Assembly: GCA_038825355.1 (NCBI GenBank)
Contig: JAWBPF010000003.1
Location: forward strand, 1 to 34,582
From: Candidatus Bathyarchaeia archaeon
GTDB lineage: Archaea > Thermoproteota > Bathyarchaeia > 40CM-2-53-6 > DTGE01
Length of the DNA stretch: 34,582 nt
Direction of reading: 5' to 3'
The position numbers were made by a program, and so were the translations under genes. The first letter of the stretch is position 1. The number at the start of each line of letters is the position of its first letter. Below, in pieces: positions 1,309 to 9,015 of the stretch. The notes under the pieces were generated by a model that saw only the letters and a list, made by a program, of their open reading frames with translations, was not told where the DNA came from and searched no databases.

Positions 1309-1321
1309 AAAAACTTATAAG
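1309..1321 (+). promoter_or_regulatory. Putative BRE/TATA promoter of the tRNA gene
   Basis: AAAACTTATAAG lies about 25-30 nt upstream of the GGGCCCGC leader and tRNA 5' end. Confidence 0.5.
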
Positions 1322-1352
1322 TAGACGATACACCTCTCCAATAAGGGCCCGC

Positions 1353-1513
1353 GGGCCCGTAAGGCGCGTTAAGCGTTCGGGAAGCTCAGCCAGGAAGAGC
1401 ACCGGAAGGGTTTAAACCCTGGTGAAGCTTTTAACCCTGGTGTAAGGGGAGGCCACCCGGAAAGGCTTAAAAGCCTTGGGGAGGGGTCCCGGGTTCGAAT
1501 CCCGGCGGGCCCG
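1353..1513 (+). tRNA. tRNA-Lys(UUU) with four BHB introns (1362-1383, 1406-1426, 1434-1454, 1461-1483); CCA not encoded
   Basis: Joining exons 1353-1361, 1384-1405, 1427-1433, 1455-1460 and 1484-1513 gives a fully paired 74-nt cloverleaf: GGGCCCG TA GCTC AGCCAGGAA GAGC A CCGGG CTTTTAA CCCGG GGGTC CCGGG TTCGAAT CCCGG CGGGCCC G. Each removed segment sits in a bulge-helix-bulge motif. Confidence 0.93.
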
Positions 1514-1582
1514 TAAAACCAACAATAAACTTTATTAAAAGCCCGAAAAGCCTATAACTTGCCCACAAGGTGGGTCCTTCAA

Positions 1583-1837
1583 GTGAAAAGAGAGGATAAA
1601 CAAACCTATAACGTGTTGAATCACGCACTAGTTCCCAGGCATATACTCCTTACAGAGGAGGAAGCTGAAGAGCTATTAAAAAAATATCATGTAAAACCTT
1701 ATCAGCTACCCTATATTAAGGTATCCGATCCGGCGGCGAAAGCAGTGGGAGCGAAGCCTGGCGACATAATAAAGATAGTAAGGCGGAGCCCCACCGCAGG
1801 CGAAGCCATAGCCTATAGATACGCTGTGGAGGACTAG
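1583..1837 (+). CDS. rpoH: DNA-directed RNA polymerase subunit H (Rpo5)
   Basis: HALVPRH, LPYIKVSDP and PGDIIKIVRRSPTAG motifs. GTG at 1583 follows an AGGTGG SD-like site; the ORF-track start at 1559 is the alternative. Confidence 0.95.
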   Translation: MKREDKQTYNVLNHALVPRHILLTEEEAEELLKKYHVKPYQLPYIKVSDPAAKAVGAKPGDIIKIVRRSPTAGEAIAYRYAVED

Positions 1838-1839
1838 AA

Positions 1840-4800
1840 ATGGGAGACTACTGGAGCCTAATAGAGCGGTTCCTTCAGGAAGAGGGCTTAGTTAGGCAGC
1901 ATATAGACTCATACAACGACTTTATAGACTACGACATTCAAGCCATAATCGATGAGACAAAGGAGATACCTATAGAGGCTGAGAAATACTCGTTAAAGAT
2001 AAGGTTTGGAAGGATATCTGTAGGCACTCCAAGGGTTATAGAAGTGGATGGTGCTGAGCGTCAAATATACCCCATGGAGGCCAGGATCAGGAATCTGGCA
2101 TATTCCGCCCCAATACATCTAGAAATGACGACGATGATAGACGGCAGAGAGGCTAGGACAGAACTAGTATACATAGGCGATATGCCGGTGATGTTGAAAT
2201 CTAAGATTTGCCCCCTCAGCAGATTAACCCCTGAAGAGCTCCGTAAGATAGGTGAGGACCCCCTAGATCCAGGGGGCTACTTCATAGTAAACGGTTCAGA
2301 ACGTGTAATAGTAGGCTTAGAGGATCTCGTCCCAAATAGGATACTGGTCGAATCCGAGCATACAGGAGTAACCCCCACCTATAAGGCTAAGATATTCTCG
2401 ACAACCGTTGGATTCAGGGCTAGGATAGAAGCTAAGATGAAGAACGACGGCGCCATATACGTATCAACTCCGGGGATACCCGTAGAAGTTCCAATTATTA
2501 TCTTGATAAAGGCGCTAGGAATAGAAGAGGATATAAGGATTGCTGAGATGGTCTCCCCGAGGGAGGAGATCCAAGCTGAAATCGCCCCATCCTTCGAAAA
2601 GGCTTCAGGCATAATATCCCAGAGGGATGCGTTGCAGTACCTTGGAAACCGGCTGGCTCCAGGCCAAGTTGAAGAGTACCGGATGAGAAAAGCTGAGAAC
2701 CTCATAGATAGAAACCTCCTCCCACATATTGGAACCACTCCCGAGAAAAGGGTTGAGAAGGCCTACCTCCTAGCGGAGATAGCACGAAGAATCATCGAGC
2801 TGAAACTCGGAATAAGAGACGAAGACGATAAAGACCATTACGCGAATAAGAGGCTGAAGCTTGCAGGCCCTCTATTATCCGACCTCTTCAGGATAGCCTT
2901 TAGAACCCTTACAAGGGACATGAAGTATCAGCTTGAAAAAGTGATAATAAGACGGCACGGCGAGATACTAGTATCCAACGCTGTACGTCCAGGGATCATA
3001 ACCGAAAGGCTGCAGCATGCCATAGCTACAGGCAACTGGGTGAGGGGAAGGGTTGGGATAACCCAGCTGCTGGATAGGACGAGCTACTACTCCACATTAA
3101 GCCATCTTCGAAGGCTTCAATCCCCCCTAAGTAGAAGCCAGCCCAACTTAGAGGCAAGGGATCTACATTCAACCCACTGGGGAAGGCTGTGTCCAAATGA
3201 GACCCCCGAAGGCTCAAATTGTGGTCTAGTAAAGAACCTAGCCCTCTCAGCTGAGATCTCGGTAGGCTGTCCAGTGGAATCCGTTATCGAAACCCTTAAA
3301 GAGTTAGGGGTAACCCCCATAGAGGAGGCCTCAAAGGATCTCCGCATTAAAGGCACGAAGATCTTTGTAGATGGGATACTAATAGGATACACGGAGGATC
3401 CGGAAACCTTAGTGGCAGCCGTAAGGAGGAGACGAAGGGAGGGAAAGTTAAGCAGTCAACTCAATGCAGCCTATTATCCAGCCCAAAGCCCCGAAGGAGA
3501 GGATGAGATAATAGTAAACTGCGATGCAGGAAGGGTTCGTAGACCCTTAATAGTGGTAGAGAATGGAATACCATTACTAAGCGGAGAAGAGATAGCTAAA
3601 GTCGAAGGAGGCGAGCAGCCTTGGCTATCCCTAATAGAGAGAGGCATAATAGAATATTTGGATTCAGACGAGGAGGAGAACGCCCTAGTAGCCTTAGACC
3701 CCTCCCAGATTACATCTGAAACCACGCATTTAGAGATATCCCCATACGCCATCCTTGGAATATGTGCATCCCTAATACCCTACGCGGAGCATAATCAGTC
3801 TCCTAGAAACGCCTATGAATCAGCCATGGCTAAACAGGCACTCGGAGTATATGCCAGCAATTATTTTAATAGGGTTGACTCTAGAGCTCACATCCTGCAT
3901 TACCCTCAAGCCCCGATAGTTACGGCTAAAAGCTTGAAAACCACCCAGTATAATCGCCGTCCATCAGGACAAAACTGTATAGTGGCCGTGCTCACATCCC
4001 AAAGCTATAATATGGAAGATGCAATAATAATGAATAAGTCCTCCGTAGATAGGGGACTTGCCAGATCCACGTTCTTCAGGACTTATGAAGGCGAATCCAG
4101 ACAATACTTGGGAGGGCTCAGGGATAAGTTCGAGGTACCCGACCCTAACATAAGGGGATACAGGGGAGACCAATATTATAGGCTGCTCGAGGAGGATGGG
4201 GTAATACCTGTAGAGGTGGAAGTGGAGGGAAACACTGTTCTCATAGGAAGGACAAGTCCTCCAAGATTCCTGGAGGAGTATAGGGAATTCGAGGTCTCAG
4301 GCCCTGCGAGGAGGGACTCCTCAATATGTATGCGCCCATCAGAGCTAGGCGTCACCGACGCAGTCTTCATAACGGAGTCTATAGACGGGAACAAGCTGGT
4401 AAAGGTCCGAGTTAGAGATACGAGGATCCCTGAATTAGGCGATAAATTCGCTTCAAGGCATGGCCAGAAAGGGGTTATAGGCCTACTGGTTCCAGCTGAA
4501 GATATGCCCTTCACAGAGTACGGTATAACACCGGATATAATAATAAATCCCCACGCATTCCCATCGAGGATGACTATGGGACAGTTCATAGAGTCTATAG
4601 CAGGTAAGCTAGGCGCGGCTGAAGGAAGATTTATAGACGGCACACCCTTCGGCGGGGAAGGACAGGAGATCCTGAGGCGGCAACTATTAAAAGAAGGCTT
4701 CCAATATAACGGCAGAGAAGTATTATATAATGGGATAAGCGGTGAGAGGCTTGACGTAGAAGTATTCATAGGGATCGTATATTATCAGAAGCTGCATCAC

Positions 4801-5175
4801 ATGGTTGCGGATAAGATGCACGCCAGGGCGAGAGGACAGGTACAGATGCTCACACGACAGCCCACTGAGGGAAGGGCTCGTGGAGGAGGCTTAAGATTTG
4901 GTGAGATGGAACGGGACTGCCTTATAGGCCACGGAGCATCAGCCCTCTTAATGGACCGCCTACTTGAGGAATCCGATAAAGTCACGATCCTAATATGCGA
5001 GGAATGTGGATTAATAGCATACTATGATGTGAAACAGAACCGTTACGTATGTCGCATATGCGGAGAAAAGGCTAAGATATCCCCCATAGCACTATCATAT
5101 GCCTTCAAGCTACTCCTTCAAGAGCTTATGGCTTTAGGTATAGCCCCTAGATTAGAGTTAAAGGAGAAGACCTAA
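1840..5175 (+). CDS. rpoB: DNA-directed RNA polymerase subunit B (Rpo2), unsplit
   Basis: GGYFIVNGSERV, GDKFASRHGQKG, RFGEMERD and a C-terminal Zn ribbon; 1111 aa with no intein-sized insert. Confidence 0.98.
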   Translation: MGDYWSLIERFLQEEGLVRQHIDSYNDFIDYDIQAIIDETKEIPIEAEKYSLKIRFGRISVGTPRVIEVDGAERQIYPMEARIRNLAYSAPIHLEMTTMIDGREARTELVYIGDMPVMLKSKICPLSRLTPEELRKIGEDPLDPGGYFIVNGSERVIVGLEDLVPNRILVESEHTGVTPTYKAKIFSTTVGFRARIEAKMKNDGAIYVSTPGIPVEVPIIILIKALGIEEDIRIAEMVSPREEIQAEIAPSFEKASGIISQRDALQYLGNRLAPGQVEEYRMRKAENLIDRNLLPHIGTTPEKRVEKAYLLAEIARRIIELKLGIRDEDDKDHYANKRLKLAGPLLSDLFRIAFRTLTRDMKYQLEKVIIRRHGEILVSNAVRPGIITERLQHAIATGNWVRGRVGITQLLDRTSYYSTLSHLRRLQSPLSRSQPNLEARDLHSTHWGRLCPNETPEGSNCGLVKNLALSAEISVGCPVESVIETLKELGVTPIEEASKDLRIKGTKIFVDGILIGYTEDPETLVAAVRRRRREGKLSSQLNAAYYPAQSPEGEDEIIVNCDAGRVRRPLIVVENGIPLLSGEEIAKVEGGEQPWLSLIERGIIEYLDSDEEENALVALDPSQITSETTHLEISPYAILGICASLIPYAEHNQSPRNAYESAMAKQALGVYASNYFNRVDSRAHILHYPQAPIVTAKSLKTTQYNRRPSGQNCIVAVLTSQSYNMEDAIIMNKSSVDRGLARSTFFRTYEGESRQYLGGLRDKFEVPDPNIRGYRGDQYYRLLEEDGVIPVEVEVEGNTVLIGRTSPPRFLEEYREFEVSGPARRDSSICMRPSELGVTDAVFITESIDGNKLVKVRVRDTRIPELGDKFASRHGQKGVIGLLVPAEDMPFTEYGITPDIIINPHAFPSRMTMGQFIESIAGKLGAAEGRFIDGTPFGGEGQEILRRQLLKEGFQYNGREVLYNGISGERLDVEVFIGIVYYQKLHHMVADKMHARARGQVQMLTRQPTEGRARGGGLRFGEMERDCLIGHGASALLMDRLLEESDKVTILICEECGLIAYYDVKQNRYVCRICGEKAKISPIALSYAFKLLLQELMALGIAPRLELKEKT

Positions 5176-8100
5176 ATGATTGTCGGCGAAGAACTCTTCA
5201 AAGCCGTAGATTCGATAAGATTCACCCTCTCATCCCCGAGCGAGATTAGAAAGATGTCTGTAGTCGAGGTGCAGACAGCTGACACATACGACGAGGATGG
5301 AGTCCCAATACCTTCAGGCCTAATGGATGGAAGGCTGGGAACATTAGAGCCTAGACAGAAATGTAAAACCTGCGGAAACACGGCGGTCAACTGCCCAGGC
5401 CACTTCGGGCACATCGAATTGGCTGAGCCGGTAATCCACGTCTCATTCGTCAAGATCATACATAGGCTTCTAACATCCACTTGCAGGAGTTGTGGAAGGA
5501 TACTCCTCCCAGAGGAACGAGTATCCCACTATCTAGAGGAGATAGAGCATAAGAGGGAAGTATTCAATATAGCTCCTGAAGGCATATATGATGCGATATA
5601 TAAGGAGGCTAAGAAATCCCGGGAATGCCCGTATTGTGGAGCCGAGCAATACGAGATAGAGTATATGAAGCCGACTACTTTCCATGAGCTTAGGGAAAGC
5701 GGCGCAATCAGGCTGACTCCAGGAGCGGTAAGGGAACGCCTAGAAAGGATATCGGAAGGAGACCTACTTCTTTTCGGTATAAACTCTAAAGCGGCGAGAC
5801 CTGAATGGGCTGTGCTCCAGGTGCTCCCCGTGCCCCCCGTCACAGTGAGGCCCTCCATAACCCTAGAATCCGGCGTGAGATCAGAGGACGATCTAACTCA
5901 TAAACTCGTAGATATAATAAGGATAAACCAGAAACTTAGGGAGGCATTGGACTCAGGGGTGCCGGTGAACATAATTCAAGAGCTCCACGACCTCCTCCAA
6001 TACCATGTAACCACATACTTCGATAATGAGGTTTCAGGTATCCCTCCGGCGAGGCATAGATCGGGAAGGGCGTTGAAGACGCTCTCTCAGAGGCTCAAAG
6101 GGAAGGAAGGAAGATTCAGGGGCAATCTATCAGGAAAAAGAGTTGACTTTTCAGCGAGGACGGTTATATCCCCAGACCCCAATCTTGAACTCAACGAAGT
6201 AGGCGTCCCGATAGATGTAGCCTCTCGTTTAACAGTTCCAGTTAACGTTACCCCCTGGAACCTGGATGAGATGAGGGAGTTGGTGCGAAACGGTCCAGAT
6301 AAGTATCCAGGCGCATTATACGTTATACGTCCAGACAACCGTAGGGTACGTCTTGAATTCGTCTCCGGAAGGGAGGAATTAGCTGAAGCCTTACAGCCAG
6401 GCTTCATAGTTGAAAGGCATCTTAGAGATGGAGACATCGTATTATTCAATAGGCAGCCTTCACTTCATCGCATGTCTATCATGGCCCACAGGGTTAAGGT
6501 TTTACCTTATAAAACGTTCAGGCTTAATCCATGCGTCTGCCCACCATACAACGCGGACTTCGACGGTGATGAGATGAACCTCCACGTCCCACAGAGCGAG
6601 GAAGCACGCACCGAGGCTAGGCTTTTAATGCAGGTACAAGACCAGATATTATCGCCAAGATACGGTGGTCCAATAATAGGCGCAATAAGGGATCATCTAA
6701 GCGCCTCCTATCTTTTAACCCATAAATCCACGTATCTAGCTAAGGATGCTGTCGCTAGGCTCCTTGTGGCAGCTGGATACGAGGGATCCCTACCAGAGCC
6801 GGAGGTTAAAGAGCCGACGCCATTATGGAGTGGGAAACAGATATTCAGCTTATTCATCCCTAAAGATCTCAACTTCATCTCGAAGTCAAGCATCTGCGGT
6901 ATATATAAATGCGAAGCATGTCTACGTGAAAACTGCCCATACGACGCCTACATAGTTATAAAGGATGGACGGCTCGTTACAGGAGTAATAGATAAGGCGA
7001 CTATCGGAGCTGAAAAATCTGAAAGCCTTCTACATAGGATAGTGAAAGACTACGGCCCAGGCTACGGTAAAAAATTCCTAGACTCAATATCTAAGCTGCT
7101 GGACAGGTTCATAACCCTTAGGGGATTCACATACTCCCTGGATGAACTCGACATACCAGATGAGGTTAAGAGGGAGATAGATCAAATCATAGAGGATTCG
7201 GAGAATAATGTGAAAAAGCTCATAGAAAAGTATAAGGTTGGTGAGCTTGAGAGGCTTCCAGGACAAACCTTAGAGGAATCCTTAGAGATATACATTATGA
7301 ACGAGCTTTCAAAGGCCAGAGATAAGGCAGGGGAACGCGTAGAGGAATACTTCACGTTAGGGAATTCCGGCATAGTAATGGCTGCGACAGGGGCTCGTGG
7401 ATCCATGTTAAATATTGGTCAGATGTCCGCCTGCCTCGGGCAGCAATCCATAAGAGGTAAACGCATCTCCAGAGGCTATAAGGGGAGAACCCTGCCTTTC
7501 TTTAAGCCTGGAGATGCAGGAGCAGCCGCAAGGGGATTCGTATATTCATGTTATAGGGATGGCTTAAGCCCCATGGAGTTCTTCTTCCATGCGATGGGAG
7601 GTAGAGAAGGCCTAGTAGATACGGCGGTGAGGACCCAGCAGAGCGGATACATGCAGAGGAGGCTGATAAACGCGTTAGAGCATATACGCGTCGAATATGA
7701 TGGCACTGTCCGAGACTCCGATGGAGATATAATCCAATTCGATTATGGCGAGGACGGCGTAGACGCGGCTAAAAGCGATCATGGAAAAGCGGTAAACGTA
7801 GAAAACATTATCGCAAGGGTGAGATTAAAGCATGGGAAGGGAGGGGCGGCGCCTCCCAACTACATTGAGAAGCATGTAAATGAAGCGGCTTCAAAGCTTA
7901 CTCCAATACTCCATAAAACCCTAATGGAATCCCTGAAGAAATCTGGGCTTACCAGGAAGGGAGTGGATGAAGTAATAAGGTTGACCCTTAGAAGCTATAG
8001 GCGATCCCTAATAGAGGCAGGCGAGGCCGCAGGTATAGTATCAGCCCAATCCATAGGTGAGCCTGGAACTCAGATGACCCTGAGGACCTTCCATTATGCT

Positions 8101-9015
8101 GGCGTCAGGGAAAGAAACGTAACCCTTGGCCTTCCAAGATTGATCGAGATAGTCGACGCGCGGAGAACCCCTTCAACACCGAGTATGACCGTGTATTTAG
8201 ATAAGGATCATAGGAGGGATAGGTCCCAAGCGGAGGAGATAGCGAACATGATAACCCATACGACGATCAGAGACGTTGCAGATCTGATAGAATCGGATAT
8301 TATAGAGATGACTATCAGGATCATTTTAAACCCTGAGGCCATGGCTAAGAGGAGTGTTTCCTTAGAAGAGGTTAAGAAGGCCTTAACCCTCCCTCACTGC
8401 GAGGTCTCAGCAGACGGCTGTGAAGTGACCTTGGAGGTTAAGGGTAGAGACATACCCCAGTTTAGGCGTTTAGCCGCCCATATACCTGATCTGAAGGTTA
8501 AGGGATTAACGGCGGTTAAAAGGGCTTTATTGGTGGAAGAGGAAGGCGAATGGATAATAGTCACGGAGGGATCAAGCCTAAAGTCTATAATGGCTGTGCC
8601 TGGAGTGGATCCCACCAGGACCATATCAAATAATATCCATGAGGTTGCTGAAGTATTAGGGGTAGAAGCAGCTAGAAACGTGATAGTAAAAGAGTCTCTT
8701 GAAGTCTTAGAGGAGCAGGGATTAGACGTAGATATAAGACATATCATGCTCGTAGCGGATGCGATGACGGCCTCAGGTGAGGTGAAGCAGGTTGGCCGAC
8801 ATGGAATAAGCGGAGGGAAGGCGAGTACTCTGGCTAGAGCCGCATTCGAGATAACAGTTCCAACACTAGTGGATGCCGCGTTAAAGGGAGCTAGGGATGA
8901 GCTGAAGGGAGTCGCTGAAAACGTCATAGTGGGGCAGCAGATACCCATGGGTACTGGGCTTATAGAGGTTTACATGACGCTGCCTGAGAGGACCGATGAA
9001 AAGGAAGGGGAGTAG
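5176..9015 (+). CDS. rpoA1: DNA-directed RNA polymerase subunit A, fused A'+A'' (Rpo1)
   Basis: NADFDGDEMN catalytic motif, CPGHFGH, and A'' motifs (QSIGEPGTQMTLRTFH, LARAAFE) in one 1279-aa ORF. Confidence 0.97.
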   Translation: MIVGEELFKAVDSIRFTLSSPSEIRKMSVVEVQTADTYDEDGVPIPSGLMDGRLGTLEPRQKCKTCGNTAVNCPGHFGHIELAEPVIHVSFVKIIHRLLTSTCRSCGRILLPEERVSHYLEEIEHKREVFNIAPEGIYDAIYKEAKKSRECPYCGAEQYEIEYMKPTTFHELRESGAIRLTPGAVRERLERISEGDLLLFGINSKAARPEWAVLQVLPVPPVTVRPSITLESGVRSEDDLTHKLVDIIRINQKLREALDSGVPVNIIQELHDLLQYHVTTYFDNEVSGIPPARHRSGRALKTLSQRLKGKEGRFRGNLSGKRVDFSARTVISPDPNLELNEVGVPIDVASRLTVPVNVTPWNLDEMRELVRNGPDKYPGALYVIRPDNRRVRLEFVSGREELAEALQPGFIVERHLRDGDIVLFNRQPSLHRMSIMAHRVKVLPYKTFRLNPCVCPPYNADFDGDEMNLHVPQSEEARTEARLLMQVQDQILSPRYGGPIIGAIRDHLSASYLLTHKSTYLAKDAVARLLVAAGYEGSLPEPEVKEPTPLWSGKQIFSLFIPKDLNFISKSSICGIYKCEACLRENCPYDAYIVIKDGRLVTGVIDKATIGAEKSESLLHRIVKDYGPGYGKKFLDSISKLLDRFITLRGFTYSLDELDIPDEVKREIDQIIEDSENNVKKLIEKYKVGELERLPGQTLEESLEIYIMNELSKARDKAGERVEEYFTLGNSGIVMAATGARGSMLNIGQMSACLGQQSIRGKRISRGYKGRTLPFFKPGDAGAAARGFVYSCYRDGLSPMEFFFHAMGGREGLVDTAVRTQQSGYMQRRLINALEHIRVEYDGTVRDSDGDIIQFDYGEDGVDAAKSDHGKAVNVENIIARVRLKHGKGGAAPPNYIEKHVNEAASKLTPILHKTLMESLKKSGLTRKGVDEVIRLTLRSYRRSLIEAGEAAGIVSAQSIGEPGTQMTLRTFHYAGVRERNVTLGLPRLIEIVDARRTPSTPSMTVYLDKDHRRDRSQAEEIANMITHTTIRDVADLIESDIIEMTIRIILNPEAMAKRSVSLEEVKKALTLPHCEVSADGCEVTLEVKGRDIPQFRRLAAHIPDLKVKGLTAVKRALLVEEEGEWIIVTEGSSLKSIMAVPGVDPTRTISNNIHEVAEVLGVEAARNVIVKESLEVLEEQGLDVDIRHIMLVADAMTASGEVKQVGRHGISGGKASTLARAAFEITVPTLVDAALKGARDELKGVAENVIVGQQIPMGTGLIEVYMTLPERTDEKEGE

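Follow-up and report, generated by a model that had tools for sequence, protein, structure and literature searches.

Can a transfer RNA (tRNA) gene that is broken into five exons, two of them only a few nucleotides (nt) long, be a working gene? This question is raised by positions 1353-1513 of the forward strand of a 34,582-nt stretch of DNA from a Candidatus Bathyarchaeia archaeon (assembly GCA_038825355.1, contig JAWBPF010000003.1, positions 1 to 34,582; this whole stretch is called the window below). An initial annotation made from the sequence alone had read the locus as a tRNA-Lys(UUU) gene interrupted by four introns with bulge-helix-bulge (BHB) motifs. We consider it highly probable (roughly 88%) that 1353-1513 is a functional and apparently the sole tRNA-Lys(UUU) gene of its genome, and that its four-intron precursor would be spliced through BHB motifs as proposed below, including the order of intron removal and the role of a leader element.

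A tRNA-Lys(UUU) Gene in Five Exons

Excision of 1362-1383, 1406-1426, 1434-1454 and 1461-1483 (introns I1 to I4) leaves a fully paired 74-nt tRNA-Lys, and both the coordinates and the arithmetic of the initial annotation are exact, as is its remark that the introns make up 87 of the 161 nt and that two exons have only 7 and 6 nt. The intron positions that it assigned, 9/10, 30/31, 37/38 and 43/44, held as well, together with the reading as four BHB introns (Table 1). Given the 74-mer spliced in silico, ARAGORN calls tRNA-Lys(ttt) [1,74] with a complete cloverleaf. Because this program is too permissive on spliced combinations (542 "valid" tRNAs from the Lys locus, Asn and Pro readings included), we adopted a purpose-written strict cloverleaf score based on four stems and eleven conserved features. 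The features checked were the 7/4/5/5-base pair (bp) cloverleaf, U8, A14, the GG of the D-loop, U33, a purine at 37, the TTCRA of the T-loop, G53-C61 and the anticodon UUU. All 21 stem pairs of the 74-mer are Watson-Crick and 11/11 features are present, which gives 32/32, the maximum, and the four-intron solution reaches this value among all combinations of BHB-like deletions at the locus. No solution with one or two deletions at the locus scores 28 or more, even when no motif is required. A split or permuted tRNA gene was ruled out: the five exons are collinear within 161 nt, and the upstream element described below copies the 5' strand, not the 3' half.

Table 1. Features of the tRNA-Lys(UUU) locus and its surroundings in the window.
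Feature	Coordinates	Strand	Description
TATA-like putative promoter element	1315..1321	+	~24 nt upstream of the leader copy; same A/T heptamer at the same distance in 4/4 family orthologs
Leader copy of the 5' acceptor strand	1345..1351	+	7/7 identical to 1353-1359
Exon 1	1353..1361	+	9 nt; tRNA nt 1-9 (acceptor 5' strand, U8, A9)
Intron 1 (I1)	1362..1383	+	22 nt at 9/10; H 4/4, h' 5 bp, h 3 bp
Exon 2	1384..1405	+	22 nt; tRNA nt 10-30 (D-arm, 26, 27-30)
Intron 2 (I2)	1406..1426	+	21 nt at 30/31; H 4/4, h' 5 bp, h 5 bp
Exon 3	1427..1433	+	7 nt; tRNA nt 31-37, anticodon UUU included
Intron 3 (I3)	1434..1454	+	21 nt, canonical 37/38; H 4/4 (two G.U), h' 4 bp, h 1 bp in the primary transcript
Exon 4	1455..1460	+	6 nt; tRNA nt 38-43
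Intron 4 (I4)	1461..1483	+	23 nt at 43/44; H 3/4, h' 6 bp; h 4 bp, with the 3' end of I3
Exon 5	1484..1513	+	30 nt; tRNA nt 44-73 (variable loop, T-arm, acceptor 3' strand, discriminator G); CCA not encoded
92-amino acid open reading frame	1559-1837	+	between the tRNA and rpoB
RpoB	1840-5172		Rpb2 domains

Four Bulge-Helix-Bulge Motifs on Very Short Exons

We scored the motifs by the published geometry, in which the central helix (H) pairs the four exon bases preceding the 5' bulge with the four intron bases preceding the 3' bulge. A motif further required one 3-nt bulge on each of the two strands, cut after the second base, and a helix of no less than 2 bp on at least one flank (h or h'). The geometry claimed in the initial annotation was recovered in full: H is complete in I1-I3 and has 3/4 pairs in I4, where an A faces a G, and each 3-nt bulge is cut after the second nucleotide. 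In the primary transcript, all four introns have a flanking helix of the required length (Table 1). An H plus h' as good as the one present occurred in 13, 1, 48 and 15 of 20000 shuffles for I1, I2, I3 and I4, respectively, and the four motifs exceed chance. When the register was moved within 6 nt to either side, the proposed one was best for I1 and I3 and tied with one other for I2, and for I4 two shifted registers outscored it by one point.

The four H-plus-h' cores use separate bases and can coexist, and the outer helices cannot all form together. The outer helix of I2 takes exon-3 bases that make the central helix of I3, and that of I4 takes the last bases of I3, which are also its 3' bulge; neighboring motifs overlap in this way because exons 3 and 4 are very short. 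Since I2/I3 and I3/I4 share bases, splicing needs either refolding or relaxed motifs. Before any splicing, the outer helix of I3 has 1 bp; with the other introns gone, it grows into the regular anticodon stem of 5 bp. The outer helix of I4 would fall from 4 to 0 bp if I3 were removed first. The most economical order would thus be an early removal of I1, I2 and I4, with I3 coming last. With motifs that overlap on exons of 6 and 7 nt, the introns are predicted to be removed in an obligatory order.

The 3' part of I2 (1417-1426) and the 5' part of I3 (1434-1442) have a 9-nt identical string in common, and the start of I3 resembles exon 4 (1455-1460) plus one extra T. The shared string is a possible surrogate partner for the 5' strand of the anticodon stem, or a possible trace of a duplication.

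Conservation and History of the Introns

The same four introns are found at the same places in three relatives of the present genome (G000), one of the same genus (G001) and two of the same family, f1 (G005 and G004). All 16 introns of these four genomes have at least 3/4 central pairs and an h' of 3-7 bp. In the four-gene alignment the exons differ at one T-loop position only, and the introns diverge. When this alignment is placed on the specified structure, 98.5% of 198 cells pair, and both partners have changed in six pairs, every one within the four h' helices. These six double-sided changes were reached in only 2 of 500 shuffles, and slid controls gave 0-1. Coming from four sequences, these compensatory changes are supportive, not decisive.

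Could the interrupted gene be a chimera of reads, created by assembly or binning? The window comes from a fragmented metagenome-assembled genome (150 contigs), which speaks for such an artefact. Against this, the same architecture is present in five genomes of the family, as well as in Logan contigs of two runs from two studies, one identical to the window (probably its source) and the other from a G001-like strain, whose allele differs within the gene in the introns only. We give this explanation practically no weight.

The boundaries of the introns can also be seen without any motif. We made a gapped alignment of each ortholog to the mature sequence, in which related genomes are not independent samples. 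The E1-E2 junction is contiguous in L025-L031, L094 and L116, the E2-E3 junction in L028, L031 and L116, the E3-E4 junction in L094, and the E4-E5 junction in L094 and L116.

Intron calls in the relatives, made with a purpose-written BHB-aware solver, range from one to four per ortholog. One intron, the canonical one, is predicted in L116; two in G006 and G034 (37/38 and 43/44) and in L094 (30/31 plus a T-arm intron); three in G027 and in family f9 (G021 and G013, at 30/31, 37/38 and 43/44). Four are predicted in family f1, in the four genomes described above and in G003, which has a different fourth intron, located in the D-loop. The fourth intron appears to have arisen twice from these comparisons, at 9/10 in G000, G001, G005 and G004, and in the D-loop in G003. 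The series would show one essential tRNA gaining introns step by step, from one to two, three and four. In the f8 relatives, the Lys(CUU) genes carry three introns, at 30/31, 37/38 and 43/44. A Lys-type gene lies upstream of rpoB in five of the 80 RpoB-anchored loci, one of them a different tRNA, a count that applies to these loci and not to the class. Among the 35 predicted introns of the present genome, an all-against-all local alignment revealed no sequence families (top score 12 versus 11 in shuffled sequences) and no sign of recent copying between genes.

These comparisons also bear on a reading with three introns instead of four, in which I3, exon 4 and I4 form one 45-nt intron (1438-1482) in the 3' strand of the anticodon stem, leaving a 73-nt tRNA-Lys(UUU) whose variable loop has 4 nt. 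If I1 and I2 are kept as they are, removal of this one segment gives 32/32, equal to the four-intron product, and comparable merged solutions exist in G001 (9 alternatives) and G034 (1). In G021 and G013, a two-intron reading reaches 30.0 against 30.5 for three introns, scores so close that these genes are best described as "best read as three". However, the boundaries of 1438-1482 lack a BHB (1/4 central pairs, h' of 2), whereas I3 and I4 each have one that is conserved in four genomes, and no merged solution reaches 30 in G005, G004 or G006. Moreover, the lineages in which the junction is uninterrupted (L094 and L116) have a 5-nt variable loop, which matches the four-intron product and not the 4-nt loop of the alternative. 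We regard the merged intron as very improbable and retain the four-intron reading.

The Lysine tRNAs of the Genome

The initial annotation had suspected that standard tRNA finders would miss this gene, and they do: ARAGORN reports 0 genes in the window and Rfam gives 0 matches at its gathering threshold. In a permissive search, the Rfam tRNA model gives the gene 16 bits, versus a threshold of 29 bits, and the gene is absent from the 20 tRNA matches of the genome. Annotation pipelines can thus overlook an essential tRNA, which distorts the tRNA complement, completeness and codon capacity attributed to metagenome-assembled genomes. A search for any other tRNA-Lys(UUU), which the initial annotation had recommended, found none in the genome by the Rfam tRNA search (20 matches), by the BHB-aware solver (56 seeds) or by ARAGORN -i (39 calls). 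The only other Lys tRNA found has the anticodon CUU and three predicted introns, the first in the D-loop (contig C49, minus strand, ~5855-6008 in plus-strand coordinates). A CUU anticodon is not expected to read AAA under established decoding rules, and AAA is used 45 times in two adjoining RNA-polymerase genes. The locus at 1353-1513 is apparently the only AAA-reading lysine tRNA gene of this genome.

The genome as a whole is rich in tRNA introns. Our census solved 30 of the 56 seeds, one of which is probably false (C15, start 5148, five introns, score 28.5) and two doubtful (C42 and C43). The 27 credible solutions comprise six genes without introns, nine with one, eight with two, three with three and one with four; 21 of them have at least one intron, and the total is 38 introns, or ~1.4 per gene in this rough census. 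About 33 real tRNA genes were recognised, 29 solved and four unsolved; the other unsolved seeds look like coding sequence. Archaea typically have ~46 tRNA genes.

Some loci of the genome deserve separate mention. A 194-nt tRNA-like locus on the plus strand (G000:C42:2043-2236) combines a good T-arm and a GC-rich acceptor stem with a leader sequence at -11 that repeats its acceptor strand exactly; the isotypes given by the solver and by ARAGORN are implausible, and the locus, possibly with three or more introns, could rival the Lys gene. On the minus strand of C2 (G000:C2:25491-25630), a locus with the same acceptor stem as Lys is by eye a tRNA-Arg(CCU) with two introns. The solver gave no solution there, and ARAGORN lists Arg(cct) among several readings of the spliced form and reads the genomic locus as Leu(tag). 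Three candidates with a Lys-type acceptor pair (C55, C78 and C144) were rejected as not being tRNAs.

The gap in the tRNA complement leaves room for another explanation, that the locus is a decaying or non-functional gene and that the part of the genome missing from the assembly (9%) contains a working Lys(UUU) gene, or that AAA is decoded by another route. The assembly is 91.39% complete in 150 contigs, which makes a second Lys(UUU) gene in the missing part possible and counts against the gene being the sole one; ~33 tRNA genes were recognised against ~46 expected, and the sequencing runs listed are all metagenomes, none of them on record as RNA. A decayed gene would hardly keep near-invariant exons and a perfect cloverleaf in four genomes while its introns diverge with compensatory changes, nor a constant place upstream of rpoH/rpoB in those genomes. 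Moreover, the sole other Lys tRNA found, CUU, is not expected to read the AAA codons that the neighboring genes use. Decay is in our view even less probable than the merged intron, and we keep to a functional gene.

A Leader Copy of the Acceptor Strand

Immediately upstream of exon 1 lies a copy of the 5' acceptor strand that had gone unnoticed in the initial annotation (Table 1). Judged by its position, the TATA-like heptamer at 1315-1321 would be an archaeal promoter element, and its conservation suggests that the leader copy is transcribed.

Such copies go together with introns near the acceptor stem. In this genome, an exact upstream copy is present in seven of the eight gene solutions whose first intron follows nt 8-10, at a distance of 8-27 nt, and the eighth solution is weak and probably false. 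None of the other 22 solved genes has one (Fisher p = 3.9e-6, a value for kin and paralogs that are not fully independent), and no leader copy was found in the four real tRNA genes that stayed unsolved. In trials with random 7-mers, 111 of 20000 had a second copy within the 40 nt upstream.

The association extends to relatives. For tRNA-Lys, a fully pairing copy stands at -8 in 4/4 genomes with I1 (two with a G.U variant) and in 0/12 rows without it. For tRNA-Asn(GUU), all 12 resolved relatives at the order level (13 loci, one unsolved) combine an 8/9 intron with a copy that pairs fully and stands 12-17 nt upstream. Class-wide, a copy of at least 6/7 accompanies the intron in 10/10 further genomes and is found in 0/10 without it (23 loci, three unsolved), a count that includes G064 on condition that one of its two tandem copies is taken as leader and the other as exon. 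For tRNA-Glu(UUC), the figures are 5/5 with a 10/11 intron and 0/6 without (copy of at least 6/7; 12 loci, one unsolved).

Folding energies, calculated for 37 °C, suggest what the copy may do. The BHB of an 8-10 intron has to draw on the bases of the acceptor stem and competes with it. When the leader was left out, a fold with the central helix imposed lay 5.4 to 15.2 kcal/mol above the one with the native acceptor stem in 7/7 genes; when it was included, the copy paired with the 3' acceptor strand and the balance tipped to the BHB conformer, by 1.9-9.5 kcal/mol, in six of the seven. In the predicted fold of the Lys precursor with its leader, 1345-1351 pairs with 1506-1512.

We tentatively propose, at odds that we place just short of even, a cis-acting device of Bathyarchaeia that has not been described before: in genes with an intron at positions 8-10, the 7-nt leader surrogate would hold the 3' acceptor strand and shift the precursor from the native acceptor stem to the cleavable BHB conformer. 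It may have let introns colonise the acceptor-proximal junction and helped tRNA-Lys(UUU) to reach four introns. Several points tell against such a role. The gene on C136 still favors the native stem by 2.9 kcal/mol with its leader, several leader copies match at 6/7 only, the transcription start upstream of the Lys copy is a predicted one, and the association of copy and intron rests on related genomes and on a purpose-written intron solver.

The copy might instead be a neutral duplication scar of intron gain, or serve another role such as the choice of the RNase P site, in which case the four introns would still be real. In some lineages it includes the following T, like a duplicated exon 1, and in the tRNA-Asn of G064 (L169) the acceptor strand plus T is present twice in tandem at a spacing of 13 nt, and either copy could be exon 1 of the same mature tRNA, a hint that leader copies may arise by exon 1 duplication. 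The imperfect copies (6/7) would suit a scar, and the thermodynamic argument depends on parameters for 37 °C and on the inferred transcription start. A scar would not be expected to persist as a 7-mer across families whose spacers (8 to 33 nt) and introns have diverged beyond recognition, nor to remain fully complementary to the 3' strand after the real 5' strand has changed, as in the tRNA-Asn of G004. Seven different tRNAs, moreover, each have their own matching copy, and the copy is missing wherever the 8-10 intron is missing (Lys 0/12, Asn 0/10, Glu 0/6). We consider the scar or another role unlikely, if a more serious contender than the other alternatives discussed here, and prefer the folding device. 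If it is real, it would be an experimentally tractable case of a precursor that encodes its own folding aid, and would explain the persistence of introns at a site where the splicing motif has the most stable tRNA helix as its competitor. It would also open the order and folding logic of multi-intron tRNA splicing to direct tests.

Splicing Machinery and Proposed Pathway

The genome encodes two EndA proteins, both of which match PF01974/PF02778. The first (191 amino acids) is of the catalytic type, its best PDB matches being subunits of crenarchaeal heterotetramers (1.5e-45), and the second (196 amino acids) is a divergent paralog with a Sen54-N match. The pair is consistent with a heterotetramer of broad specificity and would form an alpha2-beta2 enzyme; the two open reading frames are located on the minus strand at L051:1459-2031 and L052:1429-2016. 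RtcB is encoded as well, and RNase P RNA is present (174 bits).

From the geometry of the motifs, their conservation with compensatory change and the presence of these enzymes, we infer that the exons are cut and joined in the following way. A single precursor of ~170 nt would contain the five exons and four introns. Each intron would fold into a small hairpin (h'), and pairing of its 3' flank with four bases of the exon just ahead of the 5' splice site would create the BHB; EndA would cut both 3-nt bulges and RtcB would join the exons. The motifs of I2 and I4 would be complete in the primary transcript, and that of I3 would gain its anticodon-stem helix after their removal. At the 5' end, the leader copy (1345-1351) would pair with the 3' acceptor strand and leave nt 1-7 free for the motif of I1. 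After the removal of I1, the true acceptor stem would form and RNase P would remove the leader.

Several observations weigh against this scheme. The central helix of I4 has only 3/4 pairs in all four genomes, and the complete motifs (hBHBh') of I2 and I3, as well as those of I3 and I4, are mutually exclusive through their shared bases. The unconstrained minimum-energy fold of the precursor is not the conformer with four BHBs (-78.0 versus -62.2 kcal/mol, without the leader; these are 37 °C energies and not those of a hot spring). We found no spliced joint of the gene in contigs of the four runs examined (X1, X2, X4 and X7, the last of which contributed no contig), which are hot-spring metagenomes with no bearing on expression and whose contigs cannot show rare joined forms. 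A 253-nt contig of X4 covers 1422-1674 unspliced and without differences, in a library that is labelled metatranscriptomic and flagged as probably DNA.

This last contig starts in I2 and ends 160 nt beyond the tRNA; were it RNA, it would represent a read-through precursor. A joint that skips from 1405 to 1485, with 33 other letters between (X2), was rejected as a spliced form: it is the Lys(UUU) gene of another organism, with a single canonical intron.

Comparison with Known Systems

How unusual are four introns in one archaeal tRNA gene? The initial annotation had placed this number at or beyond the known range. It does exceed the maximum given for archaea up to 2021 in the accessible text of several sources: "two or even three" (Chan et al., 2011; PMC3218864), "a maximum of three" in a 2014 review (PMC4033280) and up to three per gene in the tRNAscan-SE 2.0 paper (PMC8450103). 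It is no longer a record, since a bioRxiv preprint of October 2026 (10.64898/2026.10.13.758758) reports, in its accessible part, up to five intervening sequences in one Asgard tRNA gene, so the four-intron count alone is not unprecedented. Among non-canonical positions, the available text of one review lists 20/21 to 59/60 ("etc."), with 3/4 as an extreme, and does not name 9/10 or 43/44 (PMC4090602). We found no literature on tRNA introns of Bathyarchaeia among open-licence papers. Nor did the accessible text of such papers describe a leader that copies the acceptor strand.

The closest parallel may be drawn with the multi-intron tRNAs of Thermoproteales (Pyrobaculum, Thermofilum), which were found with SPLITS and tRNAscan-SE: the present host also belongs to Thermoproteota and has two EndA paralogs, and there too, finders fail until introns are removed iteratively (PMC8450103, PMC4090602). 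Unlike the Thermoproteales, for which the accessible sources state a maximum of three, the present lineage is Bathyarchaeia, with four introns here and in four relatives. It also has the leader copy, of which the available text of three sources makes no mention (PMC4090602, PMC4033280, PMC3218864).

In Asgard archaea, as here, most tRNA genes are interrupted, the introns measure ~22 nt and have BHB boundaries, and annotators miss many of these genes (10.64898/2026.10.13.758758, PMC11291895). Introns were reported in 92-95% of the tRNA genes of three Asgard genomes (Valentin-Alvarado et al., 2024; PMC11291895). Asgard archaea, however, are a different phylum, and in their accessible parts these papers center on D-arm insertions, place a few acceptor-stem or junction cases under "other" and describe no leader element.

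The split tRNAs of Nanoarchaeum equitans and Caldivirga resemble the present gene in that sequence outside the mature tRNA, there the complementary leaders, builds a helix that presents the BHB to EndA (PMC4033280). As far as the accessible text of this review goes, those leaders pair in trans between two transcripts, whereas the gene described here is collinear and the proposed pairing is in cis, with its own 3' acceptor strand. Lastly, tRNAs of Cyanidioschyzon merolae and of nucleomorphs have several BHB-type introns per gene at unusual positions (PMC3728597, PMC4090602). These hosts are eukaryotic, unlike ours, and the available text gives up to three introns per gene in a nucleomorph (PMC4090602). 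The tRNA-Lys(UUU) gene would extend heavily interrupted tRNA genes to Bathyarchaeia, a widespread class of uncultured archaea.

Host Genome and Neighboring Genes

The window is contig C3 of G000, an assembly of 1.57 Mb in 150 contigs that is 91.39% complete. The 80 best relatives of its RpoB have 60-82% identity, and nearly all come from metagenome-assembled genomes labelled Candidatus Bathyarchaeia or Bathyarchaeota. The eight sequencing runs listed as matching the window are all hot-spring metagenomes.

The position of the tRNA-Lys locus upstream of rpoH/rpoB is retained in the four genomes that have the same introns. Downstream of rpoB, Rpb1 domains 1-5 are all located on one open reading frame of 1279 amino acids (5176-9012, plus strand). 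In many archaea the largest subunit of RNA polymerase is split into A' and A''; in this genome it appears to be unsplit. On the other side of the tRNA, a gene for an MtrH-family methyltransferase subunit (PF02007, 5e-81) occupies 306-1199 on the opposite strand.

Just 3' of the tRNA, an A/T-rich element of ~25 nt (~1521-1545) precedes the 92-amino acid open reading frame and rpoB and is near-identical in 4/4 family orthologs. It is possibly the promoter of the RNA-polymerase operon or a terminator of the tRNA.

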